The notes below the pieces were generated by a model. That model worked only from the letters and a program-made list of their open reading frames with translations. It was not told the origin of the DNA and did not search any database. Of a stretch of DNA of 64,000 nt, positions 2,956 to 45,679 are shown piece after piece. The position numbers and the translations under genes are program-made. How positions within the stretch are numbered: position 1 is the first letter of the stretch; each line of letters starts with the position of its first letter. The stretch lies in the IMG/VR virus record IMGVR_UViG_3300037484_000235, positions 64,001-128,000 of that record; one strand, given 5' to 3'. The stretch comes from a virus. Lineage: Duplodnaviria; Caudoviricetes.

Positions 2956-3492
2956 TCAGATCGTCGGAACAGTCGGTTCCGCGGATTCCTCAGCTACCAC
3001 AGGGGCGACAGCCTTGGGCGCCTTCGGTGCCTTGGGCGCCTTGGGGGCCTTCGGTGCCTTGGGGGCCTTCGGTGCCTTGGGGGCCTTCGGTGCCTTGGGG
3101 GCCTTCGGTGCCTTGGGTGCCTTGGGTGCCTTGGGTGCCTTGGGCTCCTTCGGTGCCTTCGGTGCCTTGACAGGCATCTTCGGGAGTTCCGCACGTCCCT
3201 CTGCCACATCCCATCCAAGTGAAGTCAACTTGGACTTGCGACCATCGGATACGATGACACCACGCTGACGGAGGCTGAAAAGTGCGTTGCTCATCGGGAT
3301 GAGAACCGCAGCTCTCTTGTCCTTGAGACCCATGCAATCGAGCGTGAGGTTCAGGGACGCCAGTGCGTGATTTGCGAAGTCCATGAACTGGTGCCAGGAA
3401 TCCCTGTCGGCCTTGCCGAGTTCGGCTAGGGAGGCGTAGATTGGCTTGATGAGATCGCCCTGCGAAACCGTCTTTGTCGTTGTATTCGTCAT
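2956..3492 (-). CDS. winged-helix protein with (PKA)n tail, histone H1-like architecture
   Basis: same N-terminal domain as its paralogs, followed by about 17 PKA/PKE triplets. Confidence 0.7.
   Translation of the reverse strand: MTNTTTKTVSQGDLIKPIYASLAELGKADRDSWHQFMDFANHALASLNLTLDCMGLKDKRAAVLIPMSNALFSLRQRGVIVSDGRKSKLTSLGWDVAEGRAELPKMPVKAPKAPKEPKAPKAPKAPKAPKAPKAPKAPKAPKAPKAPKAPKAPKAPKAPKAVAPVVAEESAEPTVPTI
3011..3169. repeat. 9-bp tandem coding repeat (GCCTTGGGN/GCCTTCGGT) encoding PKA
   Basis: directly visible; an 18-bp sub-block also appears twice at about 2517-2556 in the paralog. Confidence 0.95.
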
Positions 3493-3555: not shown

Positions 3556-4743
3556 TCACCAACCATCGGTTAGTGGTCTGTCAGAAATGTGAGAGGTGTC
3601 CCCCTCATTGACCAGGCCCCCCTTGATATGTGGGTCCATGATCCTCTTGACGTTCTCCCTAGTGTCAGCATCTGGCATTCCGTCGAGAACGACCCGGGCG
3701 GCACGTTTGAGAAGTACCTCAAGCGCTACTGTACGTGGTAGGATCTCCAGAAGATCCTCAGCCGCACTTGCCCACGAGCAGACTGTACGGTGGCTCCACT
3801 CACAGTAGACTTCTTCCTTCTCTACACCTTCACGTACTGCAAATGTAGCACGCATCATAGTGCTGATTGCATTCGGAGCACGTTCCGCGAGCAGGGGGAA
3901 CTTTGCTTTCGCGATTGGCTCTTCGTCACGTAGATCCATTGAGTGGAACTGAATCTTACGCTCGAAGCGATCCAAAATGGATGCATCAATTGGATTTGAT
4001 GAGATGCATCGTCCCGTAGTGTCTCCGGCACCCGATGAATTTGCGGTGGCTACGATGGTTGTACCAGGAAACACCGGATAGATTTCACCGGTTGGCCCGC
4101 TGATGCGACCCTGGATTGAATCCAGTATCTGACGAAGCTCCTCCGCTTGTTGGCGTGTGGCCCGATCAAAATCTGAGAGGATAATCAGGTAAGGTACGCG
4201 CCTTCCACTACCGGTCAAGTAACCGTCTCGGAGAGCCTTGAGAAGAACTCCCTCTTCCCACTTCGTTCCTTGGGCGTCAAAGCTTCGTGTGAACTTCCAG
4301 GATTGGAGATCAGCACCCTGGACGACAGAAAAGAGAAGCGAGGGACGCCTGGTCATAGCACAGAGTGCCGACACGGCTGCGTCTTTGCCAACTCCAGGGG
4401 CGCCCCACACCCAAATCGAACGGCATTTCTTGACTGCTACAGCTACGTCCTGTACATCCCTGGCGAGAGGGCCGTGGGTTGGAACAGTGTAATGTGCTGG
4501 CATTGGCAAACAGGCGGATGCAGGAACCTCTATGTCAACTGGAAATGTCACCCCCGCGAACTTCAGAGAGAGCCCCTCTACAGTAGCTTCTTTCCGCTTC
4601 CCTGTGGTGGCCTCCGGGTACTGCACTAGGTACCCATCGAGTGACAGATCGTGTTCGTTGACGAGGTGATCCCCAAGCCAATGGGCTTCTATGCCACAGA
4701 TACGGCACTTGGCGAGACCAGATTGGGTAGCGATCATGTTCAT
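3556..4743 (-). CDS. MoxR/CobS-like AAA+ ATPase with N-terminal C2H2 zinc finger
   Basis: CRICG..HWLGDHLVNEH; Walker A WGAPGVGKD; Walker B IILSDFDR; VATANS; DASILDRF. Confidence 0.85.
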   Translation of the reverse strand: MNMIATQSGLAKCRICGIEAHWLGDHLVNEHDLSLDGYLVQYPEATTGKRKEATVEGLSLKFAGVTFPVDIEVPASACLPMPAHYTVPTHGPLARDVQDVAVAVKKCRSIWVWGAPGVGKDAAVSALCAMTRRPSLLFSVVQGADLQSWKFTRSFDAQGTKWEEGVLLKALRDGYLTGSGRRVPYLIILSDFDRATRQQAEELRQILDSIQGRISGPTGEIYPVFPGTTIVATANSSGAGDTTGRCISSNPIDASILDRFERKIQFHSMDLRDEEPIAKAKFPLLAERAPNAISTMMRATFAVREGVEKEEVYCEWSHRTVCSWASAAEDLLEILPRTVALEVLLKRAARVVLDGMPDADTRENVKRIMDPHIKGGLVNEGDTSHISDRPLTDGW

Positions 4744-38904: not shown

Positions 38905-38980
38905 TCCAGGGTAGCTCAGTGGAAGTAGCGTCCGGCTGTTAACCGGATGGTCGCAGGTTCGATCCCTGCCCCTGGAGCCA
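38905..38980 (+). tRNA. tRNA-Asn(GTT)
   Basis: loop CT-GTT-AA, CCA. Confidence 0.92.
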
Positions 38981-39047
38981 AGACGAATGCTCGGTCGGGA
39001 GTACATCAATCTTCGATACCCCCTCTCGGCCACTAAAATTGTCGTCT
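38981..39047 (+). ncRNA. minimal Y-RNA-like hairpin
   Basis: outer stem AGACGA/TCGTCT; GACGAATG; inner stem GGTCGGGAG/CTCTCGGCC; UACAU loop. Confidence 0.6.
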
Positions 39048-39053
39048 GTCTTT

Positions 39054-39170: not shown

Positions 39171-39235
39171 CTCGTAGGGCGAATGCCGCTGAGAACTACA
39201 TTCTCCAAATCAGAAGGGCTTGCCGGAAGGCTGGC
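39171..39235 (+). ncRNA. minimal Y-RNA-like element
   Basis: GGCGAATG at 39178-85; CTGA/TCAG helix; ACTACAT loop. Confidence 0.45.
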
Positions 39236-39286
39236 TCGGGTCGTCGCAAGACGGCCACTGTTTTCAGCACTCTTGTCGCTCGAAAT

Positions 39287-39922: not shown

Positions 39923-39925
39923 CTA

Positions 39926-40057
39926 GGGCAGATGCGGTGAGGACTACATAACAGGAACTCGGGGTCGCTGGTTCAAGTCCAGCCTGCCATCCTGGATGGC
40001 AGTAGCTCAGTCTGGTAGAGCACGAGTAAAAACCAATCTTCGCTAACCTTGCTGCCC
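39926..40057 (+). ncRNA. yrlA: YrlA-type Y RNA (circularly permuted class I tRNA module)
   Basis: order AC-3' strand, V loop GGGTC, T arm, loop-closed acceptor, D arm, AC-5' strand; outer GGGCAG/CTGCCC. Confidence 0.85.
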
Positions 40058-40066
40058 GAACTTTAT

Positions 40067-40528: not shown

Positions 40529-40603
40529 CGCGGGATGGAGAAGTGGTATCTCGTCGGGCTCATAACCCGGAGAACGCCGGTTCAAATCCGGCTCCCGCAA
40601 CCA
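40529..40603 (+). tRNA. initiator tRNA-fMet(CAT)
   Basis: C1:A72 mismatch, three G-C pairs in the anticodon stem, CCA. Confidence 0.92.
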
Positions 40604-40606
40604 AAT

Positions 40607-40683
40607 GGGGTCGTAGCTCAGTTGGGAGAAGCGCCTGCATCGCAAGCAGGAGGTCGTGAGTTCAAATCTCACCGATTCCACCA
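40607..40683 (+). tRNA. tRNA-Ala(CGC)
   Basis: G3-U70, loop AT-CGC-AA, ACCA. Confidence 0.9.
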
Positions 40684-40740
40684 TGTTTTAATAGTGGTTG
40701 ACTTACCATACTGAATGGTTCAACCTTCACCGTATCCACC

Positions 40741-41322
40741 ATGCTAGACACAGATCACCCTGAGGAAATTGTTTCCTCATCTTGGGATGGCCGTCCTCGA
40801 AGACTTGTTGCCAATCTTTGTGGTCATTGTCATGGCAGGTTCTTTGCCCCGAGACACACAACTGCAAAGTTCTGTTCTAAGACATGCTCCGACGAGTCAC
40901 AGAAGAACAAGACCGTTCTTGTTTGTGCCCAATGTAAAAGGTCTTTTGAGCGTGTTCCCAGTACCTTGAAGAACTCCCGGAGTGGGGTGAGATTCTGTCA
41001 GAGATCCTGTAAGGATGAGGCTCAAAGACTTGAGGGTCTCAAGGCCATACACCCTTCTCACTACGGGAGTGACATCACCCACAAGAAAGCTCTGATTAGG
41101 GATAGGGGACACAAGTGCGAGGTGTGTGGTTTCTCTCGGTGGCAAGGCAAGCCAATATCTCTGCACGTCGATCATGTCGACGGAAACCCTTATGACCACT
41201 CCCTAAGCAACCTTCGATTGATCTGTCCAAACTGTCATACCCAGACGCCAACTTATGGCGGCAGGAATAGAGGAAGGGGGAGAAAGTCGCGAAAGCTTCC
41301 GGATTGGAGTGACGTGAGGTGA
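40741..41322 (+). CDS. HNH endonuclease with N-terminal treble-clef Zn motifs
   Basis: CEVCG..W.G..ISLHVDHVDG...D....NLRLICPNCH.QT.TY. Confidence 0.9.
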   Translation: MLDTDHPEEIVSSSWDGRPRRLVANLCGHCHGRFFAPRHTTAKFCSKTCSDESQKNKTVLVCAQCKRSFERVPSTLKNSRSGVRFCQRSCKDEAQRLEGLKAIHPSHYGSDITHKKALIRDRGHKCEVCGFSRWQGKPISLHVDHVDGNPYDHSLSNLRLICPNCHTQTPTYGGRNRGRGRKSRKLPDWSDVR

Positions 41323-41334
41323 TGGGGTGTTTTT

Positions 41335-41407
41335 CGGGGTGTAGCTCAAATGGGAGAGCTTTGGCGAACAGCCAAAGATCAGGGTTCGAATCCCTGCTAC
41401 CCGGCCA
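41335..41407 (+). ncRNA. tRNA-like RNA with 5-nt anticodon loop (GAACA)
   Basis: canonical D and T arms, GCCA end, two acceptor mismatches. Confidence 0.6.
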
Positions 41408-41541
41408 GTGTTGTGGAAATACTCGATGGGGATTACATTACCTGCTAAGTAATCGATCTGGGTTCGACTCCCAGGCGCTCCCGTAAGGGGGCGAGCCAGG
41501 GGCTAGAAAAACATCTCTGTCATCACTTGTTTCACAGCACT
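41407..41541 (+). ncRNA. permuted tRNA-mimic Y-like RNA retaining a GCU anticodon arm
   Basis: 12-bp outer stem; GATTACAT; AC arm, T arm, GTAA-closed acceptor, D-like hairpin. Confidence 0.7.
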
Positions 41542-41551
41542 ACTTCTTTTC

Positions 41552-41692
41552 GTGGTGAATACCGCAGTGACTACATGGAAAACGGTTGCCGAAAGGCGTG
41601 TGGGCTTCGATACCCACCTCAGCCTCGCAAGGGCTGAGTGGCGGAATGGCAGACGCGACTGCAAATGTCACTGTGACCCCTCTTGTCACCAC
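41552..41692 (+). ncRNA. permuted tRNA-Leu-like (class II) Y-like RNA
   Basis: V arm GCCGAAAGGC, T arm, closed acceptor, Leu D arm; outer stems of 9 and 7 bp; GACTACAT. Confidence 0.8.
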
Positions 41693-41833
41693 ACTAACTT
41701 CGCATGGGCCCTACGGGGTCCATGTGCAGACGGGTCTCGTAGGTCGCGCCAGGCCCTACGAGCTGGAAGATAGGGGACGCCACCCGCGAAAGCGATCAGC
41801 GGCCCCGAGTCCTGTCCGTGTTCCTGGTATTCT

Positions 41834-41906
41834 GGGGCTGTAGCTCAGTTGGGAGAGCGTCTCCATGGCATGGAGAAGGTCAAGGGTTCGATTCCCTTCA
41901 GCTCCA
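41834..41906 (+). tRNA. tRNA-Ala(GGC)
   Basis: loop AT-GGC-AT; ends ACCG. Confidence 0.9.
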
Positions 41907-41907
41907 C

Positions 41908-42053
41908 CGTAAGGGTAGTTCAAGTTGCGGTCGCGTACCGCACGGGGACGTAGGACAACCACAAGTCTGTGCACAGGTCGGTGGGAAGATCACGCGACGT
42001 GAGAGCTGCCTTCCAATAGAAGGTGAACGCAGGCGGAAACCCTGCCCCTTACG
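41908..42053 (+). ncRNA. expanded tRNA-like RNA
   Basis: 8-bp closing stem CGTAAGGG/CCCTTACG; T-like arm GCAGG-CGGAAAC-CCTGC. Confidence 0.4.
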
Positions 42054-42067
42054 ACAATTTCAAACAT

Positions 42068-42143
42068 GGGGACGTAGCTCAGCTGGGAGAGCGCGGGCTT
42101 TGCAAGCCTGAGGTCGCAGGTTCAATCCCTGTCGTCTCCACCA
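42068..42143 (+). tRNA. tRNA-Ala(TGC)
   Basis: loop TT-TGC-AA, ACCA. Confidence 0.92.
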
Positions 42144-42589: not shown

Positions 42590-42643
42590 GGTTGAATGCC
42601 ACGTCGGGAGTACATCCCTATACGATAAACCCTCTCGACAACC
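42590..42643 (+). ncRNA. minimal Y-RNA-like hairpin (paralog of 38981-39047)
   Basis: GTTGAATGC..GTCGGGAGTACATC..CGATA..CTCTCGAC. Confidence 0.6.
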
Positions 42644-42680
42644 GTGCAGACTAGTGCTGCACACCTTGTCAACCTTTCAC

Positions 42681-45102: not shown

Positions 45103-45326
45103 ACCTCTGTAGCGCAACGGAAGCGCGTCGGAAAAACGAAGCCGATATCGTAAAAGACGCCGTACCACCTGCTACCCTGAATCCAAATGGGATAGGGGGT
45201 GTGGGGAACCCCCAAAGGTTGCAGAAGCACCGAATGGCTTGGAGACAGGTCACTAGGGAAGCGCGGTTTCCTAAGAAGGGGGTTTGGGTGTGGATGAAGT
45301 GGGTTCGACTCCCACCAGGGGTGCTA
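45103..45326 (+). ncRNA. about 220-nt expanded tRNA-like RNA
   Basis: acceptor ACCTCTG/CAGGGGT, canonical D arm and T arm, about 170-nt insert. Confidence 0.6.
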
Positions 45327-45419: not shown

Positions 45420-45614
45420 GTGATGATCGACTTCAATGCAGAGTACAGGCATCGACGGAAGGGTTTCCGTGTGATCGTAGGGGAGCCCGCTTGGTGGGAC
45501 ACCATGGAAGCTAACCGGGTTGTGGTCTACAAGTTGGGGGCCATGTCTGGACCTCTGCACTGGGTGATGAAACGATCGTCGTTCGAGCGGTTGTACGAAG
45601 TCATGCGCGCGTAA
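45420..45614 (+). CDS. DUF1653-like small protein
   Basis: YRH.RKG.RV; VVVYK; WV.KRSSF. Confidence 0.6.
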   Translation: MMIDFNAEYRHRRKGFRVIVGEPAWWDTMEANRVVVYKLGAMSGPLHWVMKRSSFERLYEVMRA

Positions 45615-45679
45615 CTCAGTGGAAGAGTGTCTCCTTTACACGGAGAATGTCGGGGGTTCGATCCCCTCCGCGCGTACCA
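45605..45679 (+). tRNA. tRNA-Val(TAC)
   Basis: loop TT-TAC-AC, ACCA. Confidence 0.92.

Follow-up and report, generated by a model that had tools for sequence, protein, structure and literature searches.

A predicted YrlA-class Y RNA with an anticodon-arm-like hairpin in the tRNA array of a giant phage

Comparative sequence analysis indicates that an element of 135 bases within the tRNA cluster of a giant phage is a genuine, conserved small RNA of the YrlA/Y RNA class. It occupies positions 41407-41541 of the window, the whole stretch of 64,000 nucleotides analyzed here, which comprises bases 64001-128000 of a 252.5-kb IMG/VR record that CheckV scores as 57% complete. In our estimate, there is a probability of about three in four that the element is a phage-encoded YrlA-class Y RNA that is transcribed in the + strand tRNA array, released by the maturation enzymes of the flanking tRNAs, and docked on the phage Rsr protein.

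In the proposed mechanism, the element would belong to the transcript of the + strand tRNA array, from which the enzymes that mature its neighbors would free it. Its terminal stem, with a GAAURC/YUUGUC internal loop, would then dock on the phage's own Ro60/Rsr ring. The distal module is predicted to fold like a tRNA, with a T arm, a closed acceptor, a mini D hairpin containing GG, and an anticodon-arm-like hairpin, and could offer an L-shaped surface to a tRNA-binding effector or gate Rsr. Such a module might recruit or occlude a tRNA-binding factor, or it might stabilize the RNA. The biological role could be RNA quality control or counter-defence.

Helices of the element and their conservation

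The single-sequence minimum free energy (MFE) fold of 41407-41541 has an energy of -49.8 kcal/mol (z = -3.74 versus dinucleotide shuffles, 1 of 200 of which folds as stably). It shows the named arms, recovering the outer stem, the T arm, the GUAA-closed acceptor stem, and the small hairpin. Sequence and fold together place every helix described in an earlier note at its coordinates, and that note is upheld in that the RNA is Y-like and has a tRNA-like module, an acceptor stem closed by a loop, and an anticodon-arm-like hairpin. The 12-bp outer stem that it described is present here, two G-U pairs included, but only ~7 bp of it are conserved across the family. The parts are as follows.

41407-41418, + strand: 5' strand of the outer (terminal) stem, pairing with 41530-41541 over 12 bp
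41412-41418, + strand: conserved core of the outer stem, in which all 7 pairs covary (13 members)
41419-41422, + strand: AUAC, 5' side of the internal loop; the family consensus is AUGC within GAAUGC
41425-41433, + strand: 5' strand of connecting helix 2 (GA, then GGGGAU), pairing with 41513-41521
41433-41437, + strand: UUACA, the YUAY motif plus one A; TACA is invariant in the orthologue alignment
41437-41453, + strand: anticodon-arm-like hairpin AUUAC-CUGCUAA-GUAAU, at the site of the published YrlA V stem-loop
41454-41457, + strand: CGAU spacer, of class I tRNA variable-loop length
41458-41474, + strand: T arm CUGGG-UUCGACU-CCCAG, with 3 of 5 pairs covarying and 100% of cells paired
41476-41493, + strand: acceptor-like stem CGCUCCC-GUAA-GGGGGCG, closed by GUAA; 7 bp, all 7 pairs covarying
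41494-41504, + strand: reduced D-like hairpin AGCCAGGGGCU with GG in its loop; 3 pairs, all covarying, 87% of cells paired
41505-41521, + strand: A-rich linker AGAAAAAC, then the 3' strand of helix 2 (AUCUCU, UC); the AAAACRUCUC block is family-wide
41526-41541, + strand: CUUG (3' side of the internal loop) and the 3' strand of the outer stem; the family consensus is YUUG-UC, with UUGUC near-invariant

Homologues were sought in the flanks of Rsr homologues from viral contigs and then with nhmmer, which returned clear orthologues in six viral contigs (E values from 1e-14 to 1e-4); all contigs that yielded close orthologues had been fetched via their Rsr gene. In the orthologue alignment, GAAURC, GGGAYUACA, and AAAACRUCUC are invariant, as is the 3' YUUGUC, and the stems vary by compensatory changes; the closing pair of helix 2 (in which GGGGAU at 41428-41433 pairs with AUCUCU at 41513-41518) switches between U-A and C-G. 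RNAalifold applied to a MAFFT alignment of the seven closest sequences returned an identical set of six helices, in which both partners had changed in 18 of 34 pairs. The seven orthologue sequences then served to build a covariance model, which found 145 matches (116 distinct) across 60 loci. Among its 13 best distinct members, all from related viral contigs, 96.1% of cells pair, compared with 43-50% for slid partners, and double changes occur in 28 of 34 pairs, values reached by 0 of 500 shuffles; this alignment was fitted to the covariance model, which somewhat favors the structure, and the independent MAFFT/RNAalifold result agrees. All six helices have covariation support among the 13 members, including the 4-bp stem of the hairpin, in which all four core pairs covary.

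These changes bear on an explanation, also raised in the earlier note, that the element is a functionless, decaying tRNA remnant lacking conservation. Odd tRNA frames are abundant in the tRNA arrays of these phages, which speaks for it, but covariation in all six helices contradicts decay, and it has accumulated in contigs whose Rsr proteins, for the seven closest orthologues, are 50-83% identical to the Rsr of the window. We regard this explanation as extremely improbable. A coding reading was likewise set aside: a 55-aa open reading frame at 41319-41486 overlaps the element, and the substitutions follow the pattern of a paired RNA.

Beyond the orthologues, the signature GAAUGC...GGGAYUACAU...RUCUC...YUUGUC is common to the element, to a second element at 39925-40061, and to ~110 elements in related viral contigs. 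The shared handle is made up of a stem of 7 bp, the GAAUGC motif, a second helix whose end reads GGGAYUACAU, and the 3' RUCUC and YUUGUC, and its terminal stem with the internal loop is the most conserved feature common to the Y-like elements of the arrays. GAAUGC is near-invariant among 111 family matches and is likely a Ro60/Rsr-contact motif related to the GNCGAAN0-1G of YrlA. The strict form of the latter occurs in 26 of the 111 matches, the family consensus being N-GAAUGC. The window copy reads GGAAAUAC, in which strict GNCGAAN0-1G is absent and a compensated A-U replaces G-C; its outer-stem core ends with A-A at the position of the family G-A pair.

At least 120 contigs from bacterial genomes contain the degenerate pattern GGGAYUACAU-N18-32-GGUUCRANUCC; Sphingomonadales, Nannocystis, Planctomycetota, and Acinetobacter are among them, a broad spread of the kind reported for YrlA. 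A degenerate pattern was also needed to find viral copies by pattern scan, since no match was obtained when the exact hairpin and T arm of the window were used to scan the viral contigs. Several Nannocystis chromosomes (genomes L073, L101, L104, and L136) have the GGGAYUACAU/T-arm pattern three times in tandem within ~450 bp. Tandem YrlA-like genes in Myxococcota are consistent with myxobacteria as hosts of this phage group.

The element carries the YrlA marks of a GAAURC/CUUGU stem signature and a YUAC motif, with UUAC (41433-41436) and then the hairpin (41437-41453) lying 5' of the T arm in the order YUAY, V stem-loop. A T-arm-like stem-loop with a UUCRA loop, as in YrlA, is present. The near-invariant YrlA D stem GCUC/GAGC and the UA linker are both absent from the element and its orthologues, which have only a 3- to 4-bp hairpin whose loop GG is kept. 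The Rfam YrlA model (RF02553) gave no match at E ≤ 10 on 41395-41835 and its gathering threshold was not reached, and a blastn search of the locus against 50,697 phage records returned no match. Because Rfam YrlA is blind to the element, its D arm is reduced, its T stem differs, and its Ro motif is degenerate, we interpret it as a divergent YrlA subfamily, predicted to be paralogous to the canonical YrlA of the same array and overlooked by the public YrlA model. Against membership in the YrlA class stand the silence of Rfam, the missing strict Ro motif, and an Rsr gene 8 kb away, beyond the <4 kb of Chen et al.

The hairpin, its triplet, and likeness to tRNA

The earlier note read the hairpin as a Ser-GCU anticodon arm and suggested a homologue search for a conserved anticodon. 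None was found: the seven orthologues carry GCU, GAA, UAA, CAU, GUU, GGA, and GAU, each a different triplet, in a loop that is 7 nt long in six of the seven. The Ser assignment is further undercut by the absence of a class II long variable arm (the 4-nt CGAU stands in its place) and by an ordinary tRNA-Ser(GCU)-like gene at 48992-49076 in the same phage. The element also has no free acceptor end or CCA, the acceptor stem being closed by GUAA, and it is probably unable to be aminoacylated.

Across the family, 57 of 108 elements have, immediately after YUACA, a stem of at least 3 bp capped by a 7-nt loop, compared with 19% of shuffles. The loops of these hairpins favor C, U, A, and A at positions 1, 2, 6, and 7 (56-65% each), and the middle three positions are near uniform, with 34 different triplets among the 57. 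This bias is stronger in the window's real tRNAs (U33 in 41 of 46, A37 in 38 of 46). When viral and bacterial copies were compared with identical pattern-based selection, 24 of 46 viral copies had a 7-nt loop and 15 had the U2 plus R6 signature, versus 16 and 5, respectively, of 87 bacterial copies; the enrichment of the signature (Fisher p = 8e-5) ignores relatedness and is indicative only. A spacer of 4-6 nt is usual in viral copies. From these comparisons, the hairpin appears to be a recognizable anticodon arm in form, commoner in phage copies, with its triplet unconstrained. The V stem-loop of phages can thus be read as an anticodon arm followed by a variable loop, and the hairpin would be kept for its shape and not for its triplet.

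Could the loop nonetheless act through its anticodon, soaking up a nuclease directed at tRNA-Ser(GCU) or occupying the ribosomal A site uncharged? The canonical 7-nt loop with U33 and A37-A38 and the excess of the anticodon-loop signature in viral copies speak for such a role, as does the finding that a phage Ro60-like protein counters a defence system, ppl, in phage Bas63 (PMC11482910). Triplet variation among orthologues and across the family argues against a Ser-specific decoy, since no specific target is conserved. The element also lacks a long variable arm and a free CCA, a bulky carrier stem sits at its D/anticodon junction, and the ppl defence is proposed to act on DNA and not on tRNA (PMC11482910). 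With an ordinary tRNA-Ser(GCU)-like gene in the same phage as well, the anticodon-directed decoy or A-site mimic put forward in the earlier note is unlikely; a mimic of the anticodon loop at the level of shape is conceivable.

The tRNA likeness extends from the hairpin through the spacer into the T arm and is registered by two independent finders. The Rfam tRNA model aligned 41434-41474 locally to tRNA positions 8-63 (16.4 bits, not significant alone); in this alignment the hairpin falls on the anticodon arm and CGAU on the variable loop, with the T arm next (positions 27-63). Positions 29-65 of the family model match genuine tRNAs, such as the tRNA-Asn of Myxococcus phage Mx1 (28 bits), and with default settings, ARAGORN called the orthologue of contig L008 a tRNA-Ile(GAU). 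Relaxed ARAGORN settings called a linear tRNA over nucleotides ~3-74 in 6 of 13 members at a 90% threshold and in 9 of 13 at 80%, compared with 0-1 of 520 whole-sequence shuffles. We rejected the idea that the whole 5' 72 nt forms one intact tRNA: when the first 27 nt were shuffled, 28-39% of sequences were still called, which locates the signal in the stretch from the anticodon arm through the variable loop to the T arm. Only the segment corresponding to positions 27-65 therefore seems clearly tRNA-like, and the 5' part is at best weakly so. The hairpin, spacer, and T arm may be a relic or a mimic of tRNA positions 27-65, a likeness that fits the published tandem-tRNA origin of YrlA.

A circularly permuted or split tRNA-Ser precursor would account for the same arms in another way, with RNase P opening the acceptor loop, CCA being added, and the outer stem holding the halves together. 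[quoted passage not shown] Ser-like tRNA genes are nevertheless present at 47260-47343, ~47958-48047, ~48590-48675, and 48992-49076, the anticodon is not conserved among orthologues, and the element has no long variable arm, an acceptor loop of only 3-6 nt, and a rudimentary D arm. We consider this precursor highly improbable. The four Ser-like genes are of class II and, by eye, have the anticodons GGA, UGA, CGA, and GCU, and all end in CCGCCA; ARAGORN missed them and Rfam gave only weak tRNA-Sec-like scores. In two of them the D arm is unusually compact (AGCCAGGGGCU, GGCCAGGGGCC), and with the four counted, the array would cover all 20 amino acids. Derivation of the element from the phage's own tRNA-Ser was also rejected: blastn-short against the rest of the window gave only generic T-arm matches and one 11-nt identity between the D-like hairpin and a Ser-like gene (47970-47980, E = 1.5), which is no evidence of descent because it is absent from the orthologues.

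More speculatively, and with little confidence, phage YrlA-type Y RNAs, unlike most bacterial ones, may be under selection for an anticodon stem-loop mimic consisting of C-U-NNN-A-A, a 4- to 5-bp stem, and a class I variable loop, with fast turnover of the triplet. The hairpin would then be a working surface and not a relic, perhaps a bait, brought to phage Ro60 or shielded by it, for host factors that recognize anticodon loops, such as anticodon nucleases or modification enzymes; or it could be a living intermediate of the birth of Y RNAs from tandem tRNAs in phage arrays.

The tRNA array, its Rsr gene, and neighboring Y RNAs

Between 38.3 and 52.9 kb of the window, ARAGORN found 46 tRNAs on the + strand. 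The same array contains a Ro60/Rsr gene on the strand of the element and 8.2 kb downstream of it, whose product we presume to be the protein partner of the RNA. The closest Rsr from a cultured phage is the TROVE protein of Mx1 (45% identity). No RtcB RNA ligase was found near Rsr, where Salmonella has one, in the 57%-complete record. The features that accompany the element are these.

41335-41407, + strand: tRNA called Val-AAC, ending at the base where the Y RNA begins
49692-51359, + strand: phage Ro60/Rsr gene (Pfam vWA_Ro60 7.7e-18, TROVE 2.1e-7)
39925-40061: full-length canonical YrlA (Rfam YrlA 59 bits, E 2e-13, gathering score 69)
38978-39050, 39174-39284, and 41550-41694: further elements sharing the handle, from the covariance model
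42590-42680: look-alike of the 38978-39050 element, seen only in the fold of the spacers

Orthologues are sandwiched by tRNAs with spacers of 0-10 nt, the next tRNA lying 2-10 nt away in three of them. At the upstream position, three related phages have a tRNA-Pro(UGG), whose last base is the first base of the orthologue in contigs L003, L004, and L006. A tRNA-Ala(CGC) follows 2-8 nt after the orthologue in L003 and L006 and ~140 nt after it in L004, with another sequence between; the L005 orthologue has tRNA-Ala(GGC) on one side and tRNA-Glu on the other. In the window, the element is followed 8 nt later by another Y RNA, and the upstream tRNA Val(AAC) has a non-canonical anticodon loop, CGAACAG, with G at position 33. 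Scans of 40600-42100 for sigma-70 promoters and intrinsic terminators found none, which is consistent with polycistronic transcription but is no proof of it. From the abutting tRNAs and the lack of a promoter- or terminator-like site nearby, we infer that the enzymes of tRNA maturation would generate the ends of the element from a polycistronic transcript.

The same surroundings could suit a tRNA mimic that works independently of Rsr, either serving some other tRNA-binding protein (a modification enzyme, an RNA ligase, or a CCA-adding enzyme) as decoy or cofactor, or acting in the polycistronic tRNA transcript as an element for processing or insulation. Its distance of 8 kb from rsr, its reduced D arm and degenerate Ro motif, the tightly abutting tRNAs, and a CCA-adding-enzyme family protein encoded in the phage record are compatible with this possibility. 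Against it, the terminal stem and internal loop are what the Y-like elements of the arrays conserve most, and all close-orthologue contigs were fetched through their Rsr gene. We therefore hold an Rsr-independent role to be doubtful and favor a Y RNA that docks on Rsr.

Besides the element, the Y-RNA-like set of the window has at least five members: one canonical YrlA, minimal forms reduced to the handle, and an element whose module is of Leu type. Family members also occur in the cultured phage Mx1 (locus L063 of OR576727.2), at 3605-3712 and 3253-3382 of the locus, which correspond to about 45519-45626 and 45167-45296 of the accession. The first of these (46 bits) lies under a "hypothetical protein" coding sequence, WNM70101.1 (3610-3732), which is probably a mis-annotated RNA gene. 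Mx1-like jumbo phages combine one Ro60 gene with five or more different Y RNAs among their tRNAs, a natural panel in which many modules are attached to one handle, and because Mx1 is cultured and has family members, it is tractable for tests of Ro60 binding and function.

Several other features of these arrays were recorded. Genes for HNH endonucleases lie within the array at 40741-41322, 46417-46947, and 47580-47966 (the third by eye only) and are possible drivers of module shuffling. Just upstream of rsr, 49135-49300 holds a tmRNA-like or tRNA-like element with a large insert (Rfam tmRNA 26.8 bits, below threshold); contigs L004 and L005 and Mx1 have a full tmRNA instead. Related arrays contain tRNAs with the anticodons UUA, which reads ochre (L005 8033-8109), and CUA, for amber and called Pyl (L008 1424-1497), and one with a four-base anticodon, UCAA (L006 12186-12278), all of which are possible suppressor or frameshift tRNAs.

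Comparison with YrlA, Yrn1, and other phage systems

As described by Chen et al. (2014), YrlA consists of a 5' GNCGAAN0-1G and T and D stem-loops with a closed acceptor-like stem-loop between them; many YrlAs have a fourth stem-loop, V, between YUAY and the T arm, and in most the V loop begins with YUAY (PMC4201824). The element agrees with YrlA (RF02553; PMC4201824; 10.1101/312249) in its terminal stem, where a putative Ro60-contact motif, degenerate in this copy, lies close to the 5' end, in the arm order of YUAY, V, T, closed acceptor stem, and D, in its location on the same strand as Ro60/Rsr, and in an occurrence in bacteria and phages, sometimes beside tRNAs. It differs in its T stem (CUGGG, compared with GCGGG in YrlA), in a D arm of 3-4 bp lacking the near-invariant GCUC/GAGC, in a V hairpin shaped like an anticodon arm and followed by a class I variable loop, and in lying 8 kb from rsr inside a 46-tRNA array, whereas nearly all the best YrlA matches of Chen et al. 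fell within <4 kb of the Ro60 gene (PMC4201824).

A phage-borne YrlA was included by Chen et al. for mycobacteriophage ET08 (PMC4201824). The YrlA of mycobacteriophage Alice (JF704092.1) lies directly upstream of a Ro-like gene and is a partial match to the Rfam model (37 bits). At the place of the V hairpin it reads UUAC-CUC[AUUGAAA]GAG-AGAGGUC before the T arm, again with a 7-nt loop; it differs from the element in that its D arm is canonical (GCUCAGUGGUAGAGC), its acceptor-like stem is long, and its Ro motif reads GCCGAGAG. A carrier stem beside a closed hairpin is therefore the published YrlA layout with V (PMC4201824), seen in Alice as well, and not the third permutation topology announced in the earlier note.

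Deinococcus radiodurans Yrn1 has a T-arm-like stem-loop, and Chen et al. modelled a potential 5-bp anticodon arm in it; its loop has 6 nt, its arms are ordered differently relative to the ends, it has no V arm, and it was judged to be of independent origin (PMC4201824). Bacterial YrlA and Yrn1 are proposed to tether Rsr to PNPase and to act as a gate (PMC4201824; 10.1101/312249). In a model passed on by Wang et al. (2018), YrlA arose from a dimeric tRNA transcript, its T arm from the first tRNA and its D arm from the second (10.1101/312249). The element keeps an anticodon arm, a variable loop, a T arm, and the 3' strand of an acceptor, after which come a 5' acceptor strand and a D arm; this dimeric-tRNA model predicts such an arrangement where remodelling has gone less far. 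Since the D arm lacks the near-invariant YrlA stem, the proposal of an elbow-specific effector for YrlA (10.1101/312249) may not extend to the element. Circularly permuted tRNA genes of Cyanidioschyzon merolae and some archaea, cited in that paper (10.1101/312249), resemble the element in having a closed acceptor loop and ends paired elsewhere in the cloverleaf, but they mature to real tRNAs via a splicing endonuclease and conserve their anticodon, whereas the triplet of the element drifts and its carrier stem bears a putative Ro motif.

Phages of the Felix O1/Bas63 type belong to a different lineage and have a Ro60-like gene beside a tRNA cluster with suspected Y RNAs; these RNAs are uncharacterized in that study, and the likeness to our family is one of gene context (PMC11482910). 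With suspected Y RNAs near a Ro60-like gene whose product counters ppl in Bas63 (PMC11482910), a counter-defence role for the element is plausible by analogy.
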